This document shows positions 388 through 4,639 of a stretch of DNA of 4,828 bases, in pieces (position 1 is the stretch's first letter; each line of letters begins with the position of its first letter). The notes beneath the pieces were generated by a model. That model ran no database searches. It saw only the letters and a program-made list of their open reading frames with translations, and was not told where the DNA came from. The translations under genes were made by a program, and so were the position numbers. Source of the stretch: a virus (lineage: Duplodnaviria; Heunggongvirae; Uroviricota; Caudoviricetes); IMG/VR virus record IMGVR_UViG_2547132270_000008. One strand, written 5' to 3'.

Positions 388-597
388 ATGCGTGAAATAA
401 ATGAAGATCGCGTAATCCGTGAGGATGAATGTCGTAAGTTAACTGGAGTGTGTCGCACTACACGCTATGAACTGGAGAAAAAAGGGAATTTCCCGTCACG
501 CCGTAATCTGGGCGGTCGTTCTGTAGGTTGGCTGCTGTCCGAGGTTATGGAATGGGTTAAAAGCCGGGATCGCATTAATTCAGGCAAGGCAGCGTAA
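388..597 (+). CDS. alpA: AlpA-family (Xis-like) small helix-turn-helix prophage regulatory protein, 69 aa
   Basis: Complete ORF, ATG 388 to TAA 595-597. Small basic protein with a central HTH-like segment and the C-terminal motif G-R-SVGW...E..EW that I recognise from AlpA/Vis/Xis-type regulators of P4-like elements. Weak AGG 7 nt upstream of the ATG. Family call is from motif memory, not a search. Confidence 0.85.
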   Translation: MREINEDRVIREDECRKLTGVCRTTRYELEKKGNFPSRRNLGGRSVGWLLSEVMEWVKSRDRINSGKAA

Positions 598-610
598 AGG
601 GGGGCATATG

Positions 611-647
611 ACACATAAAACAAAGGCGACCCGGATCAGAGGTCGCC
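611..647 (-). terminator. Putative intrinsic terminator for the minus-strand operon (hairpin plus U-tract on the minus strand only)
   Basis: Perfect 7-bp GC-rich inverted repeat GGCGACC (625-631) / GGTCGCC (641-647) with a 9-nt loop. On the minus strand the stem is followed immediately by TTTGTTTTATGTGT (complement of 624-611). On the plus strand no T-run follows the stem. Lies 65 bp downstream of the stop of ORF 712-921. Confidence 0.4.
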
Positions 648-711
648 AGTGGGAATACACTAAACATAAGCCCAGCCATCATAGCGATTTGCTGGCTGGT
701 GGGCAATGTGA

Positions 712-921
712 TCAGCCTGGTGGGCGGTTCCTGTTAGCTTTCATTACCCGGGGCTGTTTATTGAGAAACTCATCAAGCGCAAATTTTGTAGGCGCTGGTT
801 CTGTATTTGGTGGCATTTGTTTAGCGTGTGCCTTTTCTTTCTGGCGTGCAACAATGCTCTGTAAAAGCAATCTTCGTTGTTCTGCGAAAATCTCTTCAGT
901 GGATAGGTATTTTTTGCTCAT
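712..921 (-). CDS. Hypothetical 69-aa protein, second gene of the minus-strand operon
   Basis: ATG at 921-919, TGA at 714-712. Charged, helix-prone sequence (MSKKYLSTEEIFAEQRRLLLQSIVARQKEKAHAKQ...), unlike the Cys/Ser/Arg/Trp-rich antisense plus-frame ORF 608-1561. Same strand as the RHH gene, 57 bp downstream of it, and followed by the 611-647 terminator. No family recognised. Confidence 0.5.
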   Translation of the reverse strand: MSKKYLSTEEIFAEQRRLLLQSIVARQKEKAHAKQMPPNTEPAPTKFALDEFLNKQPRVMKANRNRPPG

Positions 922-978
922 AGTGCCGACCTGTAAAGCAATGCGCCGGAGTACCTCACACCACAGCGCTGATAGTGA

Positions 979-1158
979 TTATTCTTGCTCTTTAGCCTTG
1001 CGTCGCTGGCGGCGTTTGATCTCGCCTTCTAATGCGGCTGTTACAAACTGCCCTGTACTTTCGCCGTCTTCTTTGACCTTATCCATGGCATCAACGATAT
1101 GGAGTGGGACACGTGCATCTATTCTTTTCGATTTTGCATTTACTGATTTCGTTGCCAT
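979..1158 (-). CDS. Ribbon-helix-helix (CopG/Arc/MetJ-like) DNA-binding protein, 59 aa; candidate repressor
   Basis: ATG at 1158-1156, TAA at 981-979. The track ORF starts at an upstream GTG (1236) that would lie inside the palindromic operator region, so I prefer the ATG. Sequence MATKSVNAKSKRIDARVPLHIVDAMDKVKEDGESTGQFVTAALEGEIKRRQRRKAKEQE has a short basic N-terminal strand (KRIDARVPL), two helices and a basic tail, the RHH pattern. Weak GGA about 9 nt upstream. Confidence 0.6.
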   Translation of the reverse strand: MATKSVNAKSKRIDARVPLHIVDAMDKVKEDGESTGQFVTAALEGEIKRRQRRKAKEQE

Positions 1159-1179
1159 TTCTGATTTCCGATTGGTTTG

Positions 1180-1261
1180 GTGTCCGACAATGATAGCGAG
1201 AAAAAAGTTTAATGCAATGCTTGACGTGTCCCACACCGATAAAATAACATGTGTCCGACAC
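1180..1261. promoter_or_regulatory. Divergent promoter/operator region: three copies of the 11-bp palindrome GTGTC-C-GACAC overlapping candidate promoters for both strands
   Basis: Palindrome copies at 1180-1190 (GTGTCCGACAa, 10/11), 1226-1236 (GTGTCcCACAC, 10/11) and 1251-1261 (GTGTCCGACAC, perfect). Candidate plus-strand promoter TTGACG (1221-1226), 18-bp spacer, TAACAT (1245-1250). Candidate minus-strand promoter TTGCAT (complement of 1217-1212), 16-bp spacer, TATCAT (complement of 1195-1190). Promoter hexamers are weak matches called by eye. Confidence 0.45.
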
Positions 1262-1357
1262 TTGATTTTTATCAGTCATAAAATGACGAAACCCCGCACT
1301 GTTGGAGCAGTAACGGGGCTTCTAACCACCAACGATAGCGAAAGTATCGAGGTAGCT

Positions 1358-1561
1358 ATGCTAAATCATACCACACACCCGCAAGGGCGGGACTCGCACA
1401 ACCTGAATAAATACATCTGGCGTTTTATCGCCCTGAGCACCGCACAACCGCGCGTGATTCACATCGTGGCCACCAGCGAACAGGAAGCACGCCAGCAATC
1501 CCCGGCTGGCTGCGTGATGGTATTCGCCGCCCGTATTCGTCAGGGGGTGTGCCATGCCTGA
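1358..1561 (+). CDS. Hypothetical 67-aa protein, first ORF of the plus-strand operon
   Basis: ATG 1358 preceded by GAGGT (1349-1353). Stop TGA 1559-1561 overlaps the ATG at 1554 of the next ORF (ATGCCTGA). Codons are dominated by E. coli-preferred CTG/CCG/CGC/GTG/ATC/ACC. This is the 3' end of track ORF 608-1561, whose upstream part I treat as antisense artefact. Alternative in-frame ATG at 1283 has no SD. The opposite-strand ORF 1361-1555 is a competing reading. Confidence 0.4.
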   Translation: MLNHTTHPQGRDSHNLNKYIWRFIALSTAQPRVIHIVATSEQEARQQSPAGCVMVFAARIRQGVCHA

Positions 1562-1880: not shown

Positions 1881-2180
1881 ATGAGAACATATTTATCTGG
1901 CTTGACTGCCAGCGGTTATGCACACCCCAAAATTATCCCCGGCGCTATTTATTGGGATAAGAACGGCAACAGAGTAACAGTAAAATCGATAATGTTTGAC
2001 CGTGTGTATTTTATTCGTGATGGCTATTCATTTCATAGCTCGCTGAACGTGGAGATCTTTATTTGCAGATTCCGGCGGGAAATCCCGCCTTCCAGAAATA
2101 ACCATGTGTCATGTATGGATGTTGATAAAAAACTACAGGAACTGAAAAACATGATTGCCGCGTGGAGAGAGCAGAAATGA
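1881..2180 (+). CDS. Hypothetical 99-aa protein
   Basis: ATG 1881 (GGGG at 1867-1870). Stop TGA 2178-2180 overlaps the ATG 2177-2179 of the large replication gene (ATGA coupling). Contains a beta-rich-looking stretch YWDKNGNRVTVKSIMFDRVYFIRDGYSF. No family recognised. Confidence 0.55.
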   Translation: MRTYLSGLTASGYAHPKIIPGAIYWDKNGNRVTVKSIMFDRVYFIRDGYSFHSSLNVEIFICRFRREIPPSRNNHVSCMDVDKKLQELKNMIAAWREQK

Positions 2181-4300
2181 AAAAAGCGCCAAATTTAAAA
2201 CACCAGCCACGTGACAAAATGACGGAAGTCATCATTTTTGCGGGTAGTGATGCGTGGGCACATGCGAAGCAGTGGCAGGAACAGGACGGGCGACTGGCTG
2301 GCGATAACGTGCCTCCTGTCTGGCTTGGAGAGCAACAACTTGCCGAACTGGACAACCTGCAAATCGTACCGGACGGACGCTATCGCGTGCGTCTCTATCA
2401 GGCGGGGTTATTGCGTCCGGGGCTTGTTAATACCATCGGGCAGAAACTGGCAGCGGCAGGTGTCAGGGATGCTGATTATTACCCTGAAGGAATGCACAGC
2501 CAGAAACGGGAGAACTGGCGCGAATATCTGGAACGTGAACGGGCAGAGCAGGCGGAAAAGAAAAAGGTAGTTGAACTGCCTGTAAAGAAAAAAGAGCCAT
2601 GCTATCAGGATGATGAATTAAAGCCCCGCGTTGAAAGTCGCGTCGATGGTGTTTTCTGGGTAACGCCCAAAGTGGATAAGCAGTCAGGCGAAATTATCCG
2701 GCCTGAGACGTGGTTATGTTCTCCGCTTGAACTACTGGGAACGGGGACGATCGGTAAAGAGCATTACCGCGTGATGCGCTGGAAAAAATTAGCAAACCAT
2801 GAAGTCATCACAATGGCGATCCCGTGTGGTGGCATTGGCGACCGTGACGGCTGGCGGTTGCTTAAAGATCACGGGCTGAACGTGACAACAAACGGCAAAT
2901 ACAGGGCTATCCTGGCTGACTGGATGCAGTTAAGCGGAAGCCATGAGGAATGGCAGCTAAGCACAACAACGGGCTGGCATTTTGGCGCGTATATCATGCC
3001 GGACGGCTCAATCATTGGTGATTCTGAAAAACCGATCCTGTTTACCGGAAAAAGTGCCGCTGTTAATGGCTATTCGGTTGCGGGTACGGCGGAGGGCTGG
3101 CGCGACTGCGTGGCGCGGCTGGCTGGTGGCAATCCGTCCATGATGCTGGGTGTTGCCACGTCACTGGCAGCACCTTTGATTGGCCTTGTTGGTGCTGACG
3201 GCTTCGGGGTACATCTTTTCGAACAGTCATCGGCAGGGAAAACCACCACGCAGAACATCGCATCAAGTTTATGGGGAGAGCCGGACGCACAACGGCTGAC
3301 CTGGTACGGCACAGCGTTAGGTATCGCTAACGAGGCAGAGGCGCACAACGACGGGCTGTTACCCCTGGATGAAATAGGCCAGGCCGGAAACGCGCGGGAG
3401 GTGTCCACGTCAGCCTATACGTTGTTTAACGGTTCCGGGAAATTACAGGGGGCGAAGGACGGCGGCAACCGGGAGATAAAACACTGGCGCACGGTGGCAA
3501 TCAGCACCGGAGAAATGGACGTTGAGACATTCCTCAAAACGGAGGGGATAAAAGTCAAAGCGGGGCAGCTTGTCCGCCTGCTTAACGTTCCGATGGAAAA
3601 AGCCACGCACTTTCACGAATACAGCACCGGAAAGGCGCACGCAGACGCGTTAAAGGATGCCTGGACAGAAAATCACGGGGCAGCGGGTCGTGAGTGGGTT
3701 AAATGGCTGGCAGGCCACCAGCAGGAGGCAAAGGATACGGTAAGGGAATGCCGCGAACGGTGGCGCAACCTGATACCGGAGAGCTACGGCGAGCAGGTCC
3801 ACCGCGTGGGTGAGCGTTTCGCCATACTGGAGGCCGCGCTTGTGCTTTCCGGTCATGTAACTGGCTGGGCCGCGCAGGAATGCCGGGACGCAATACAGCA
3901 TAACTTTAATGCCTGGGTGAAGGAGTTCGGCACGGGTAACAGGGAATTTAAACAGATGGTTGAACAGGCTGAGGCGTTTTTGTCGTCGTTCGGGTTCAGT
4001 CGATACCTTCCTTACCCAAACAGTGATGAACGTGATTTACCGATTAAAGACCTTGCCGGATACAGAAAGGGGAGTATCAGAAATGAAGATGATGAGTTCC
4101 GTTTTTACACGTTTCCTCATGTGTTTGAGGGGGAGATCGCACAGGGATTTAACCCGTCCCACTTTGCCCGCGCGTTGAGTGCTGCCGGAATGCTGGAAGC
4201 GGGTAACGATCGCCGTTACAAGAAAAAGGCTCTCGGCAAAATTGGGGGGAAGCAGCATGTTTTTTACGTGCTGATGTTCCAGCCTGAGGCAGAAGATTAA
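2177..4300 (+). CDS. Replication initiator of the primase/helicase type found in P4-like satellites and PICIs (P-loop NTPase core; often annotated as DUF927 / P4-family primase), ~707 aa
   Basis: Long uninterrupted ORF. I place the start at ATG 2177 (GGAGAG at 2164-2169, 7 nt upstream; ATGA overlap with the preceding ORF) rather than the track GTG at 2162. Stop TAA 4298-4300. Walker A-like SSAGKTT (nt 3227-3247) and Walker B-like LLPLDE (nt 3356-3373) are in frame. Size, position downstream of alpA and adjacency to an iteron origin fit the family. The N-terminal stretch VIIFAGSDAWA resembles a Toprim strand but lacks the usual acidic residue, so primase activity is unproven. Confidence 0.8.
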   Translation: MKKAPNLKHQPRDKMTEVIIFAGSDAWAHAKQWQEQDGRLAGDNVPPVWLGEQQLAELDNLQIVPDGRYRVRLYQAGLLRPGLVNTIGQKLAAAGVRDADYYPEGMHSQKRENWREYLERERAEQAEKKKVVELPVKKKEPCYQDDELKPRVESRVDGVFWVTPKVDKQSGEIIRPETWLCSPLELLGTGTIGKEHYRVMRWKKLANHEVITMAIPCGGIGDRDGWRLLKDHGLNVTTNGKYRAILADWMQLSGSHEEWQLSTTTGWHFGAYIMPDGSIIGDSEKPILFTGKSAAVNGYSVAGTAEGWRDCVARLAGGNPSMMLGVATSLAAPLIGLVGADGFGVHLFEQSSAGKTTTQNIASSLWGEPDAQRLTWYGTALGIANEAEAHNDGLLPLDEIGQAGNAREVSTSAYTLFNGSGKLQGAKDGGNREIKHWRTVAISTGEMDVETFLKTEGIKVKAGQLVRLLNVPMEKATHFHEYSTGKAHADALKDAWTENHGAAGREWVKWLAGHQQEAKDTVRECRERWRNLIPESYGEQVHRVGERFAILEAALVLSGHVTGWAAQECRDAIQHNFNAWVKEFGTGNREFKQMVEQAEAFLSSFGFSRYLPYPNSDERDLPIKDLAGYRKGSIRNEDDEFRFYTFPHVFEGEIAQGFNPSHFARALSAAGMLEAGNDRRYKKKALGKIGGKQHVFYVLMFQPEAED

Positions 4301-4322: not shown

Positions 4323-4639
4323 TGCGGGTTATGCGGGTTACTCTGTGTATAAGTGCATTAACTGCATGAATAAAAAGGAAATCAATAACCCGCACGTAAC
4401 CCGCAAAACGGCAGTTATAACCCGCAAAAGTGCGATTATAACCCGCAGATGAATAACAGGAAGTGACAGCAAACAGCCACGCGTAACCCGCAGAAAAAAC
4501 CCCGTTTGCGGGTTATTTTGAGCATTTTGCGGGTTACGCCACGGCTAAACAGTAAACAGTTAATTTTGTAATGTATTGATATTAAGGAATAAAAAATACT
4601 TAGCAAGCGAAGATAACCCGCTAACCCGCATAACCCGCA
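4323..4639. repeat. Putative origin of replication: 12 copies of the 9-bp iteron TAACCCGCA (both orientations) flanking an AT-rich spacer
   Basis: Reverse-orientation TGCGGGTTA at 4323-4331, 4332-4340, 4507-4515, 4528-4536. Forward TAACCCGCA at 4386-4394, 4397-4405, 4418-4426, 4439-4447, 4484-4492, 4614-4622 (TAACCCGCt), 4622-4630, 4631-4639. Spacings of 9, 11, 21 and 21 bp recur. AT-rich spacer 4541-4612 contains tandem TAAACAG x2. The array begins 23 bp after the replication gene stop. Confidence 0.65.

Follow-up and report, generated by a model that had tools for sequence, protein, structure and literature searches.

Induction of phage-inducible chromosomal islands (PICIs) needs the activator AlpA, and in EcCICFT073 expression of the open reading frame (ORF) downstream of alpA requires this protein (PMC6092414). 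The founding paper on Gram-negative PICIs called their global repressor "unclear," only the activator AlpA being known, and in Staphylococcus aureus pathogenicity islands (SaPIs) and Gram-positive PICIs the repressor gene, encoding Stl or Rpr, lies divergent from the satellite replication operon (PMC6092414). In P4, vis (ORF88) is followed by the 214-codon eta, which overlaps the 3' end of vis and whose last 65 codons are kil. As PMC10111431 summarises it, the CI RNA terminates transcription that starts at a promoter inside eta. Translation of full-length eta depends on the upstream late promoter alone and is coupled to that of the alpA homologue; it prevents this termination. Here we analyze a 4,828-nucleotide stretch of IMG/VR virus record IMGVR_UViG_2547132270_000008 (the window, meaning the whole stretch), in which two small minus-strand genes, encoding a 59-aa ribbon-helix-helix (RHH) protein and a 69-aa protein, lie between alpA and a replication operon. 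We find that this locus combines a probable repressor-operator switch with P4-like nested genes.

An earlier description of the window, made from its letters alone (the sequence-only reading), had predicted two small minus-strand genes running toward alpA and ending at a hairpin terminator, the first of them for an RHH protein. Both ORFs are present (979–1158 and 712–921), and RefSeq annotates them in the closest complete genome (98.3% identity) as "YlcI/YnfO family protein" and "hypothetical protein"; the predicted hairpin is GGCGACC-N9-GGTCGCC followed by TTTGTTTTAT (647–625). The 59-aa protein scores 58.7 bits against NCBIfam NF041551 (YlcI/YnfO; curated cut-off 30) and matches phrog_949 (1.6e-20), both functionally uncharacterised families, and the Pfam DUF3950 model misses it while matching an E. 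coli homologue in the same position. An AlphaFold2 model based on 24 homologues (predicted local distance difference test score, pLDDT, 89.5) shows two helices behind an extended N-terminal strand and resembles known RHH proteins in structure, bearing out the predicted fold. The turn G32-E33-S34, invariant in the 24 homologues, corresponds to the G-x-S/T/N turn capping helix 2, whereas variation among them is located in the strand and helix 1. We compared 80 loci with RHH homologues, one genome per species, from about 30 genera of Enterobacterales. In ~80 loci of many genera, the RHH gene is found at this position, beside Icd-like and/or alpA homologues; to call the pair "inserted" between alpA and the replication operon, as in the sequence-only reading, is therefore misleading for the RHH gene, and only the 69-aa gene was added in a particular lineage.

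The region upstream of the RHH gene contains a repeat, GTGTCC[CG]ACA, in three copies (at 1180, 1226 and 1251) against 0.01 expected in the window, and nearly all loci carry three copies of a ~10-bp repeat at about −32, −77 and −101 from the RHH ATG. Aligning ~75 loci without gaps from this ATG revealed that the positions of these putative operators (O1–O3) are fixed and interleaved with conserved −35/−10 elements, the order outward from the ATG being the RHH Shine-Dalgarno (SD) sequence, O1, CAGTATAC, an A-rich spacer, TTGA, O2, TA...T and O3. CAGTATAC is the minus-strand −10 element of the leftward promoter of the RHH operon (P_L), conserved in 75 loci, and in the same 75 loci the −35 TTGA and −10 TA...T of the rightward promoter (P_R) stand at fixed positions, with O2 directly after TTGA. 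In the window, P_L would lie at 1190–1217. The operators share the form GTG-N5-CAC, with the three sites ~45 and 24 bp apart, and their centre varies along with the residues of the RHH strand. Pairs of loci with identical strand residues 11–17 have O2 in common in 205 of 219 cases, as compared with 68 of 2631 pairs with different residues, counts that overstate independence because of the shared phylogeny of the loci. At least 15 specificity classes obey this rule: for example, strand residues KKLEARV go with GTGGCTGACAC, KRFDVRV or KRIDARV with GTGTC[CG]GACAC, QMTTVRI with GTGTATTTCAC, LQVSVRL with GTGGTGTTCAC, QQLNARF with GTGCGATTCAC, and QS[IV]T[VA]R with GTGTAAGACAC. The co-variation of the central 5 bp of all three operators with strand residues 11–17 gives indirect support for DNA reading by paired strands. 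The pattern also holds for the allelic cassette of a second E. coli island that occupies this chromosomal site: its strand residues and its repeats (GGTGTGTTTCA) differ, and its flanks are conserved.

Together, the number of operators, their positions and their co-variation with the strand residues argue that the RHH protein binds O1–O3, represses P_R and regulates its own synthesis; its proposed role as an immunity-type repressor of the Icd-like/replication operon, autoregulating as well, is well supported by this strong, if indirect, evidence. On O2 and O3 the protein would cover the spacer between the −35 and −10 elements of P_R and its start site, keeping the replication genes off in the quiescent island; P_R would drive the Icd-like ORF, a 106-aa ORF, a DUF4222 ORF and the DUF927 primase-helicase. 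On O1 it would cover the P_L start and thereby regulate its own synthesis, with many specificity types, like phage immunity types. The sequence-only reading had suggested a repressor plus accessory factor, analogous in role to Stl; the operators on P_R favor the repressor part, and the divergent position and presumed role fit those of Stl and Rpr, although fold and size are unrelated to those of the RHH protein. We detected no sequence relationship to P22 Arc, Mnt, plasmid omega and CopG, RHH repressors whose operators are also repeated; the window protein instead belongs to the YlcI/YnfO (DUF3950) family, whose K-12 members adjoin the terminase gene of lambdoid prophages.

The name-giving member of that family, ylcI of the K-12 DLP12 prophage (L089 6252–6446), lies divergent from the terminase small-subunit gene nohD and encodes a protein only 20% identical to the window RHH. 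The family therefore has at least two genomic settings, both uncharacterised. Literature searches on YlcI/YnfO and on RHH proteins with PICIs found no functional study, and RHH, YlcI, DUF3950 and the word "antisense" are absent from PMC10111431. A tblastn search with the RHH protein against 50,697 phage records gave no match. Within the RHH gene, an inverted 14-nt copy of O2 (13 of 14 bases) at 1101–1114 falls in codons R16–L19, at the almost invariant RVP motif, and may be either a fourth operator or an accident of the codons in this allele. The allelic locus does not preserve another repeat, TAAWGCAATGC (934 and 1210), which was taken as chance.

The two genes could alternatively form a type II toxin-antitoxin module, in which the RHH protein is an autoregulating antitoxin and the 69-aa protein a small toxin that serves to maintain the island or acts in abortive infection. 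Modules with RHH antitoxins (ParD, CopA, TacA) share with the window the RHH fold and the two-gene layout with the RHH gene first and a small partner second, O1 at the operon's own promoter would be autoregulatory, and the structural neighbours of the RHH protein include the antitoxins CopA, HicB, TacA, ParD and MazE9. By contrast with such modules, two of the three window operators lie on the divergent promoter and would control the neighbouring replication operon, the RHH protein is a bare 59-aa core with a basic tail and without a toxin-binding extension, and its partner is not conserved, most RHH homologues having none downstream and the 80 non-E. coli loci showing no conserved one. The small protein matches no toxin family and is predicted to be non-globular (predicted TM-score, pTM, 0.40), and its family is also paired with an unrelated Arc-like RHH protein and occurs in tandem copies. 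Because the partner is mostly lacking, toxin signature and toxin-binding extension are absent, and two operators sit on the neighbouring operon's promoter, the toxin-antitoxin explanation is unsupported and we regard it as very improbable; the sequence-only reading had already ranked it as the weaker of its two options.

The locus is more interesting than first described, as the repressor operon lies in phase within an antisense frame that is itself conserved. This 317-codon plus-strand ORF (608–1561), overlooked in the sequence-only reading, has an SD sequence that begins 1 nt past the alpA stop codon (595–597), and the SD/ATG stretch (598–610) is conserved in an allelic locus (L002). Before reaching the Icd-like domain, in which it ends, the frame crosses the terminator, both minus-strand genes with their spacer, and the promoter/operator region, all in antisense; its stop overlaps the start of the next gene (ATGCCTGA, 1554–1561). 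Among the related loci, the corresponding frame crosses the RHH gene without a stop in 95%, as compared with 4% and 0% for the other two antisense frames; it stays open for at least 60 codons past the RHH start (median 121) in 79% (0% and 3.7% for the others) and for at least 30 codons on the upstream, alpA side in 83% (11% and 7%). Of 60 loci, 38 (63%) have an SD-like tetramer ahead of the first ATG, against 11.7% of all ATG triplets, and this ATG lies within ~12 nt of the alpA stop in ~10 loci. We scanned 63 long ORFs, the window's own and 62 from related loci, of which 31 end in frame in the Icd-like domain. The 12 E. coli loci with an identified gene upstream of the small ORF keep the plus frame open over both for 242–623 codons.

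Judged from its sequence, this long frame is kept open across genera and resembles P4 eta/kil. In both systems, an AlpA/Vis-type gene is followed by a coupled long ORF that spans an internal promoter and ends as a ~65-aa Kil/Icd-like ORF, upstream of the primase-helicase operon; the window has an SD and ATG directly after the alpA stop and an ORF ending in NF033153, an arrangement that recurs across genera. The two differ in what lies within the long ORF. P4 immunity is exerted by the CI (C4-type) RNA and its seqA target, sense-encoded inside eta, whereas in the window their place is taken by the operon for a protein repressor, with its three operators, on the other strand. Rfam models detected the P4 RNAs, used as a positive control (C4 1.3e-14, isrK 2.4e-12), and found no family in the window, with neither C4 nor isrK even at E<=10, so a P4-type CI RNA was dropped as a candidate. 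P4 Eta also carries an Ash domain (Phage_ASH, PF10554, 4.5e-23), which the window ORF and its 62 relatives lack. The 106-aa ORF of the window proved unrelated to P4 ORF106, equal length notwithstanding.

By analogy with P4 eta/kil, we infer that the long ORF may act as an anti-termination bridge from alpA to the replication genes. A helper phage would turn on alpA, and the transcript would continue rightward; ribosomes loading after the alpA stop would translate the 317-codon frame antisense through the repressor operon and the operator region, and then the Icd-like ORF and the genes that overlap one another beyond it. Unbroken ribosome cover would keep Rho from terminating the transcript, allowing the replication genes to be expressed despite the repressor, and convergent transcription together with antisense RNA would also reduce repressor output. 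That the repressor operon, whether or not it includes the small gene beside the RHH gene, is phase-locked inside a translated antisense frame linking alpA to the replication genes, as a protein-repressor counterpart of P4 RNA immunity, is a tentative proposal to which we give a little less than an even chance. The three-step switch as a whole, made up of the repressor, its small companion and this read-through, we consider fairly probable.

Besides the relatedness of the loci compared above, several observations weigh against this explanation. About 20% of the loci do not keep the frame open, no Pfam domain was found in any of the 63 long ORFs, and the sole NCBIfam match of the window ORF is its Icd-like C-terminus (residues 269–312), the N-terminal 250 residues having none. 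No Rho-utilisation signal was evident from base composition, P_L in the window falls below the promoter-scan threshold and was identified by eye, and the similarity between the Icd-like protein and P4 Kil is weak (26% identity, E=0.025, in a pairwise comparison). Substitution rates do not help either: the third bases of the antisense codons are the third bases of the sense codons, so that silent sites are common to both strands. Compared with an allele whose small protein is 80% identical, the ratio of nonsynonymous to synonymous substitution rates (dN/dS, omega) is 0.27 for the small ORF and 0.25 for the RHH gene in the sense frame and 0.23 and 0.32, respectively, for the same regions in the antisense frame. 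Since frames that share wobble positions cannot be told apart by standard dN/dS, this measure cannot tell which strand is selected, and the coding strand must be decided by fold, operators and motif structure.

The conservation of the long frame would also be expected if it encoded a functional full-length regulator of the Icd-like/Eta type, whose sequence and not just its translation mattered. The frame is conserved, open and equipped with an SD sequence, the Prokaryotic Genome Annotation Pipeline (PGAP) names long forms "Icd-like" or "ash family" and treats disrupted ones as pseudogenes, and P4 Eta is a real domain protein. The missing Pfam domains speak against such a regulator, as do the conserved columns of the 63 ORFs, which beyond the Icd-like end only mirror the RHH gene or promoter motifs. 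The product is rich in Cys, Ser and Arg, as expected of antisense translation, and in the allelic locus L002 a stop 20 nt short of the Icd-like ATG ends the long frame, leaving the two parts unfused. A full-length regulator is in our view unlikely.

We then considered the 69-aa protein, which the sequence-only reading had described as helical and of no recognised family. It matches nothing in Pfam, NCBIfam, PHROGs, PADLOC or PDB, in keeping with that description, and yet it has a family of its own: a word-indexed search returned 3 clusters, an exhaustive profile search of 1.84 billion representatives ten, and a profile search of a 5.8-billion set 68, all source-named ones from E. coli and labelled hypothetical. 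The members (57–79 aa) follow one plan, in which a Pro/Gln-rich linker that varies in length joins an N-terminal helix (IFAEQRRxLL or a variant) to a core, P..FALExF[LV]xK.PRRLKxxKNRPPG. The model of the window protein has a confident helix at residues 8–35 (pLDDT 96 over residues 11–30), a short helix at 48–55 and a disordered basic tail. The protein is thus predicted to be helical, in line with the sequence-only reading, and non-globular; it looks like an interaction peptide. The genes of this family lie in int-alpA-primase islands, directly downstream of a ~60-aa gene. In 12 of the 13 E. coli loci examined, the small ORF adjoins and shares phase with an upstream small gene, mostly RHH; for the 13th (L090) such a gene could not be identified. 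The family is absent from all 80 non-E. coli RHH loci, indicating that the RHH gene is ancestral and the small gene a lineage-specific companion; these loci mostly have no ORF downstream of RHH, and a few have an unrelated ORF of 78–87 aa.

A 69-aa ORF of this kind might not be a gene at all, its conservation mirroring constraint on the plus-strand ORF or on the DNA itself. With shared wobble positions, low dN/dS is expected on both strands, as observed, and we therefore set it aside as proof that the small ORF is coding. The family is also limited to one species, the SD sequence is weak (AGG, 8 nt upstream of the ATG), and PGAP leaves the ORF unannotated in several genomes. The structure of the family points the other way: an amphipathic motif, FALExFL, is conserved, a helix is predicted with confidence, linker lengths differ by in-frame indels across the family, and start and stop positions are kept across subfamilies of only 20%–50% identity. 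Furthermore, substitutions between two alleles are mostly conservative, falling at sense codon positions 1, 2 and 3 in 7, 4 and 16 cases (position 1 above position 2), and the mirror peptide of the plus frame is a low-complexity S/N/A/R/C sequence with no Pfam match. We consider a non-coding origin quite unlikely and conclude, from these sequence features, that the small ORF belongs to a real, fast-diverging, E. coli-only family.

In E. coli, then, the repressor would have a 57–79-aa companion co-transcribed downstream of it, in an operon that stops at a one-way terminator beside alpA, a relationship of association only. Because it would be expressed together with the repressor, the small protein most likely acts by protein contacts while the island is quiescent, either tuning the switch or targeting a phage or host factor. 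It could instead be cargo outside the switch, such as a factor that interferes with or excludes helper phages, or one that neutralises toxicity from leaky Icd-like expression, for which lambda rexAB, co-transcribed with cI, is a comparable case. The slot it occupies is variable, the distance from the RHH stop to the alpA stop ranging from 155 to ~2000 nt among loci with unrelated ORFs in some of them; the family diversifies fast within one species (68 clusters); and one type of small ORF pairs with RHH proteins of different specificity and family. Set against this, no defence model matches the 69-aa protein, and its strict adjacency and phase-lock with the repressor, across a conserved spacer, hint at a closer functional tie. 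We judge the cargo explanation to be somewhat unlikely.

Several members of the small-ORF family occur in other arrangements. In an O157:H7 island by roxA (L096 2627–3571), of the EDL933 capsid-forming type, a 62-aa member (2839–3027) has as its partner a different, Arc-like RHH gene (57 aa, 3070–3243; Pfam Arc only at E=0.038), and the pair is antisense within a 314-codon ORF; PGAP leaves the pair unannotated and places a "pseudogene, Icd-like, incomplete" on the other strand. Another locus (L086 1697–2917) has three same-phase minus-strand genes under a ~405-codon plus-strand open frame: a 59-aa relative of the Arc-like RHH protein, assigned to RHH by eye with no Pfam RHH match, a 75-aa member of the small-ORF family and a YlcI-type RHH. 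Two further loci (L091 and L092) have two tandem small-ORF paralogues. In the window protein, residues 47–56 (755–790, minus strand; ...DEFLNKQ) resemble the FtsZ C-terminal peptide (...PAFLRKQ), with the K-Q not conserved in the family; as the neighbouring gene is annotated as a cell-division inhibitor, the resemblance is a possible lead.

The locus thus offers a concrete candidate for a Gram-negative PICI repressor, with operators mapped on the replication-operon promoter. If the antisense-frame proposal is correct, the same DNA encodes "off" on one strand and a ribosome-covered read-through to "on" on the other, an arrangement spread over Enterobacterales satellites with many immunity specificities, and the question of whether Gram-negative PICIs have a repressor would be settled. 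The model of the locus predicts that the operator sequence can be read from the RHH strand residues, that islands of the same specificity type show immunity toward each other, and that stops introduced into the plus frame make AlpA-driven expression of the replication genes Rho-sensitive. There is also an effect on annotation, as PGAP omits the small ORF in some genomes and both minus-strand genes in O157:H7, and in all of these it reports a "pseudogene" on the opposite strand.

The RHH gene shares its reading phase with the small ORF, with one TAA between them, and the 57-nt spacer shows no unusual RNA fold (z=+0.77). Positions 910–1009, comprising the RHH 3' end and the spacer, are matched in 1670 of 5426 complete E. 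coli genomes (~31%); the spacer and last RHH codons are conserved, while alleles differ in the RHH N-terminus, the operators and the small ORF. The terminator (647–625) is the sole minus-strand terminator-like site in 300–1700, ends 28 nt from the alpA stop (597) and is kept as a hairpin in the allelic locus L002, and the 3' region of the operon folds better than shuffled sequence (z=−2.35). As there is no T-run after the hairpin on the plus strand, it should stop leftward transcription only.

The Icd-like ORF nested at the end of the long frame matches NF033153 (5.5e-20) and phrog_6196 (2.3e-43), and a tblastn search against the same 50,697 phage records matched one record. The Icd-like protein matches PHROGs labelled "transcriptional repressor," a label that we assume to come from the old annotation of the P4 "cI" ORF. 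Ahead of its SD and ATG, the leader of the P_R transcript (1291–1357) carries a single-stranded CTAACCACC between two conserved hairpins; 11 of 13 predicted pairs show compensatory changes across 30 loci, and no Rfam family matches it. The leader might be a processing or regulatory element.

The window as a whole is the left arm of an E. coli PICI. It contains alpA and the DUF927 primase (Table 1) as well as iterons, and the remainder of the gene set of Gram-negative, capsid-forming PICIs is present in the closest complete genome.

Table 1. Features of the repressor locus and its surroundings, in window coordinates
Feature	Position	Strand	Remarks
alpA, activator/excisionase-type helix-turn-helix (HTH)	388–597	+	Pfam Phage_AlpA 2.9e-16; upstream gene of rightward unit
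SD AGGGGGG (598–604) and ATG (608–610) of long ORF	598–610	+	Read from sequence
317-codon eta-like ORF	608–1561	+	Ends as Icd-like domain; NF033153 at residues 269–312
Intrinsic terminator of minus-strand operon	625–647	-	7–8 bp G+C stem, then TTTGTTTTAT
69-aa small protein	712–921	-	E. coli-restricted family
Spacer, 57 nt, RHH stop to small-ORF start	922–978	-	In frame with both genes
59-aa RHH repressor (putative), YlcI/YnfO (DUF3950) family	979–1158	-	Starts MATKSVNAKS
Operator O1 (putative), GTGTCCGACAa	1180–1190		Start region of leftward promoter
Leftward promoter P_L of RHH operon (putative)	1190–1217	-	−35 TTGCAT (1217–1212), 16 nt, −10 TATCAT (1195–1190)
Rightward promoter P_R	1221–1250	+	TTGACG, 18 nt, TAACAT (promoter scan)
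Operator O2 (putative), GTGTCCCACAC	1226–1236		Between P_R −35 and −10
Operator O3 (putative), GTGTCCGACAC	1251–1261		Perfect GTGTC-C-GACAC palindrome; P_R start site
Structured leader of P_R transcript	1291–1357	+	Hairpin 1 1291–1319, hairpin 2 1333–1349, SD GAGG
Short Icd-like (P4 Kil-like) ORF, 67 aa	1358–1561	+	Nested in frame at long-ORF end
DUF927 primase-helicase	2177–4300		Icd-like/replication operon also with 106-aa ORF and DUF4222 ORF

The minus-strand pair is convergent with alpA and divergent from the operon of the Icd-like, 106-aa, DUF4222 and DUF927 primase genes. In the closest genome, where the island is located between yljB/cspD and clpS, int lies on the upstream side of the region matching the window and ssb, major capsid, prohead protease, portal, connector, HNH, TerS and TerL genes lie downstream. 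From its own capsid and packaging genes, this island is of the capsid-forming PICI type, with the gene order int, alpA, repressor module, DUF927 primase, TAACCCGC iterons, ssb and capsid/packaging genes. The window holds 12 exact copies of the TAACCCGC iteron, in both orientations, at 4324–4638, 3' of the primase gene, against 0.19 expected, and this region is the island replication origin.

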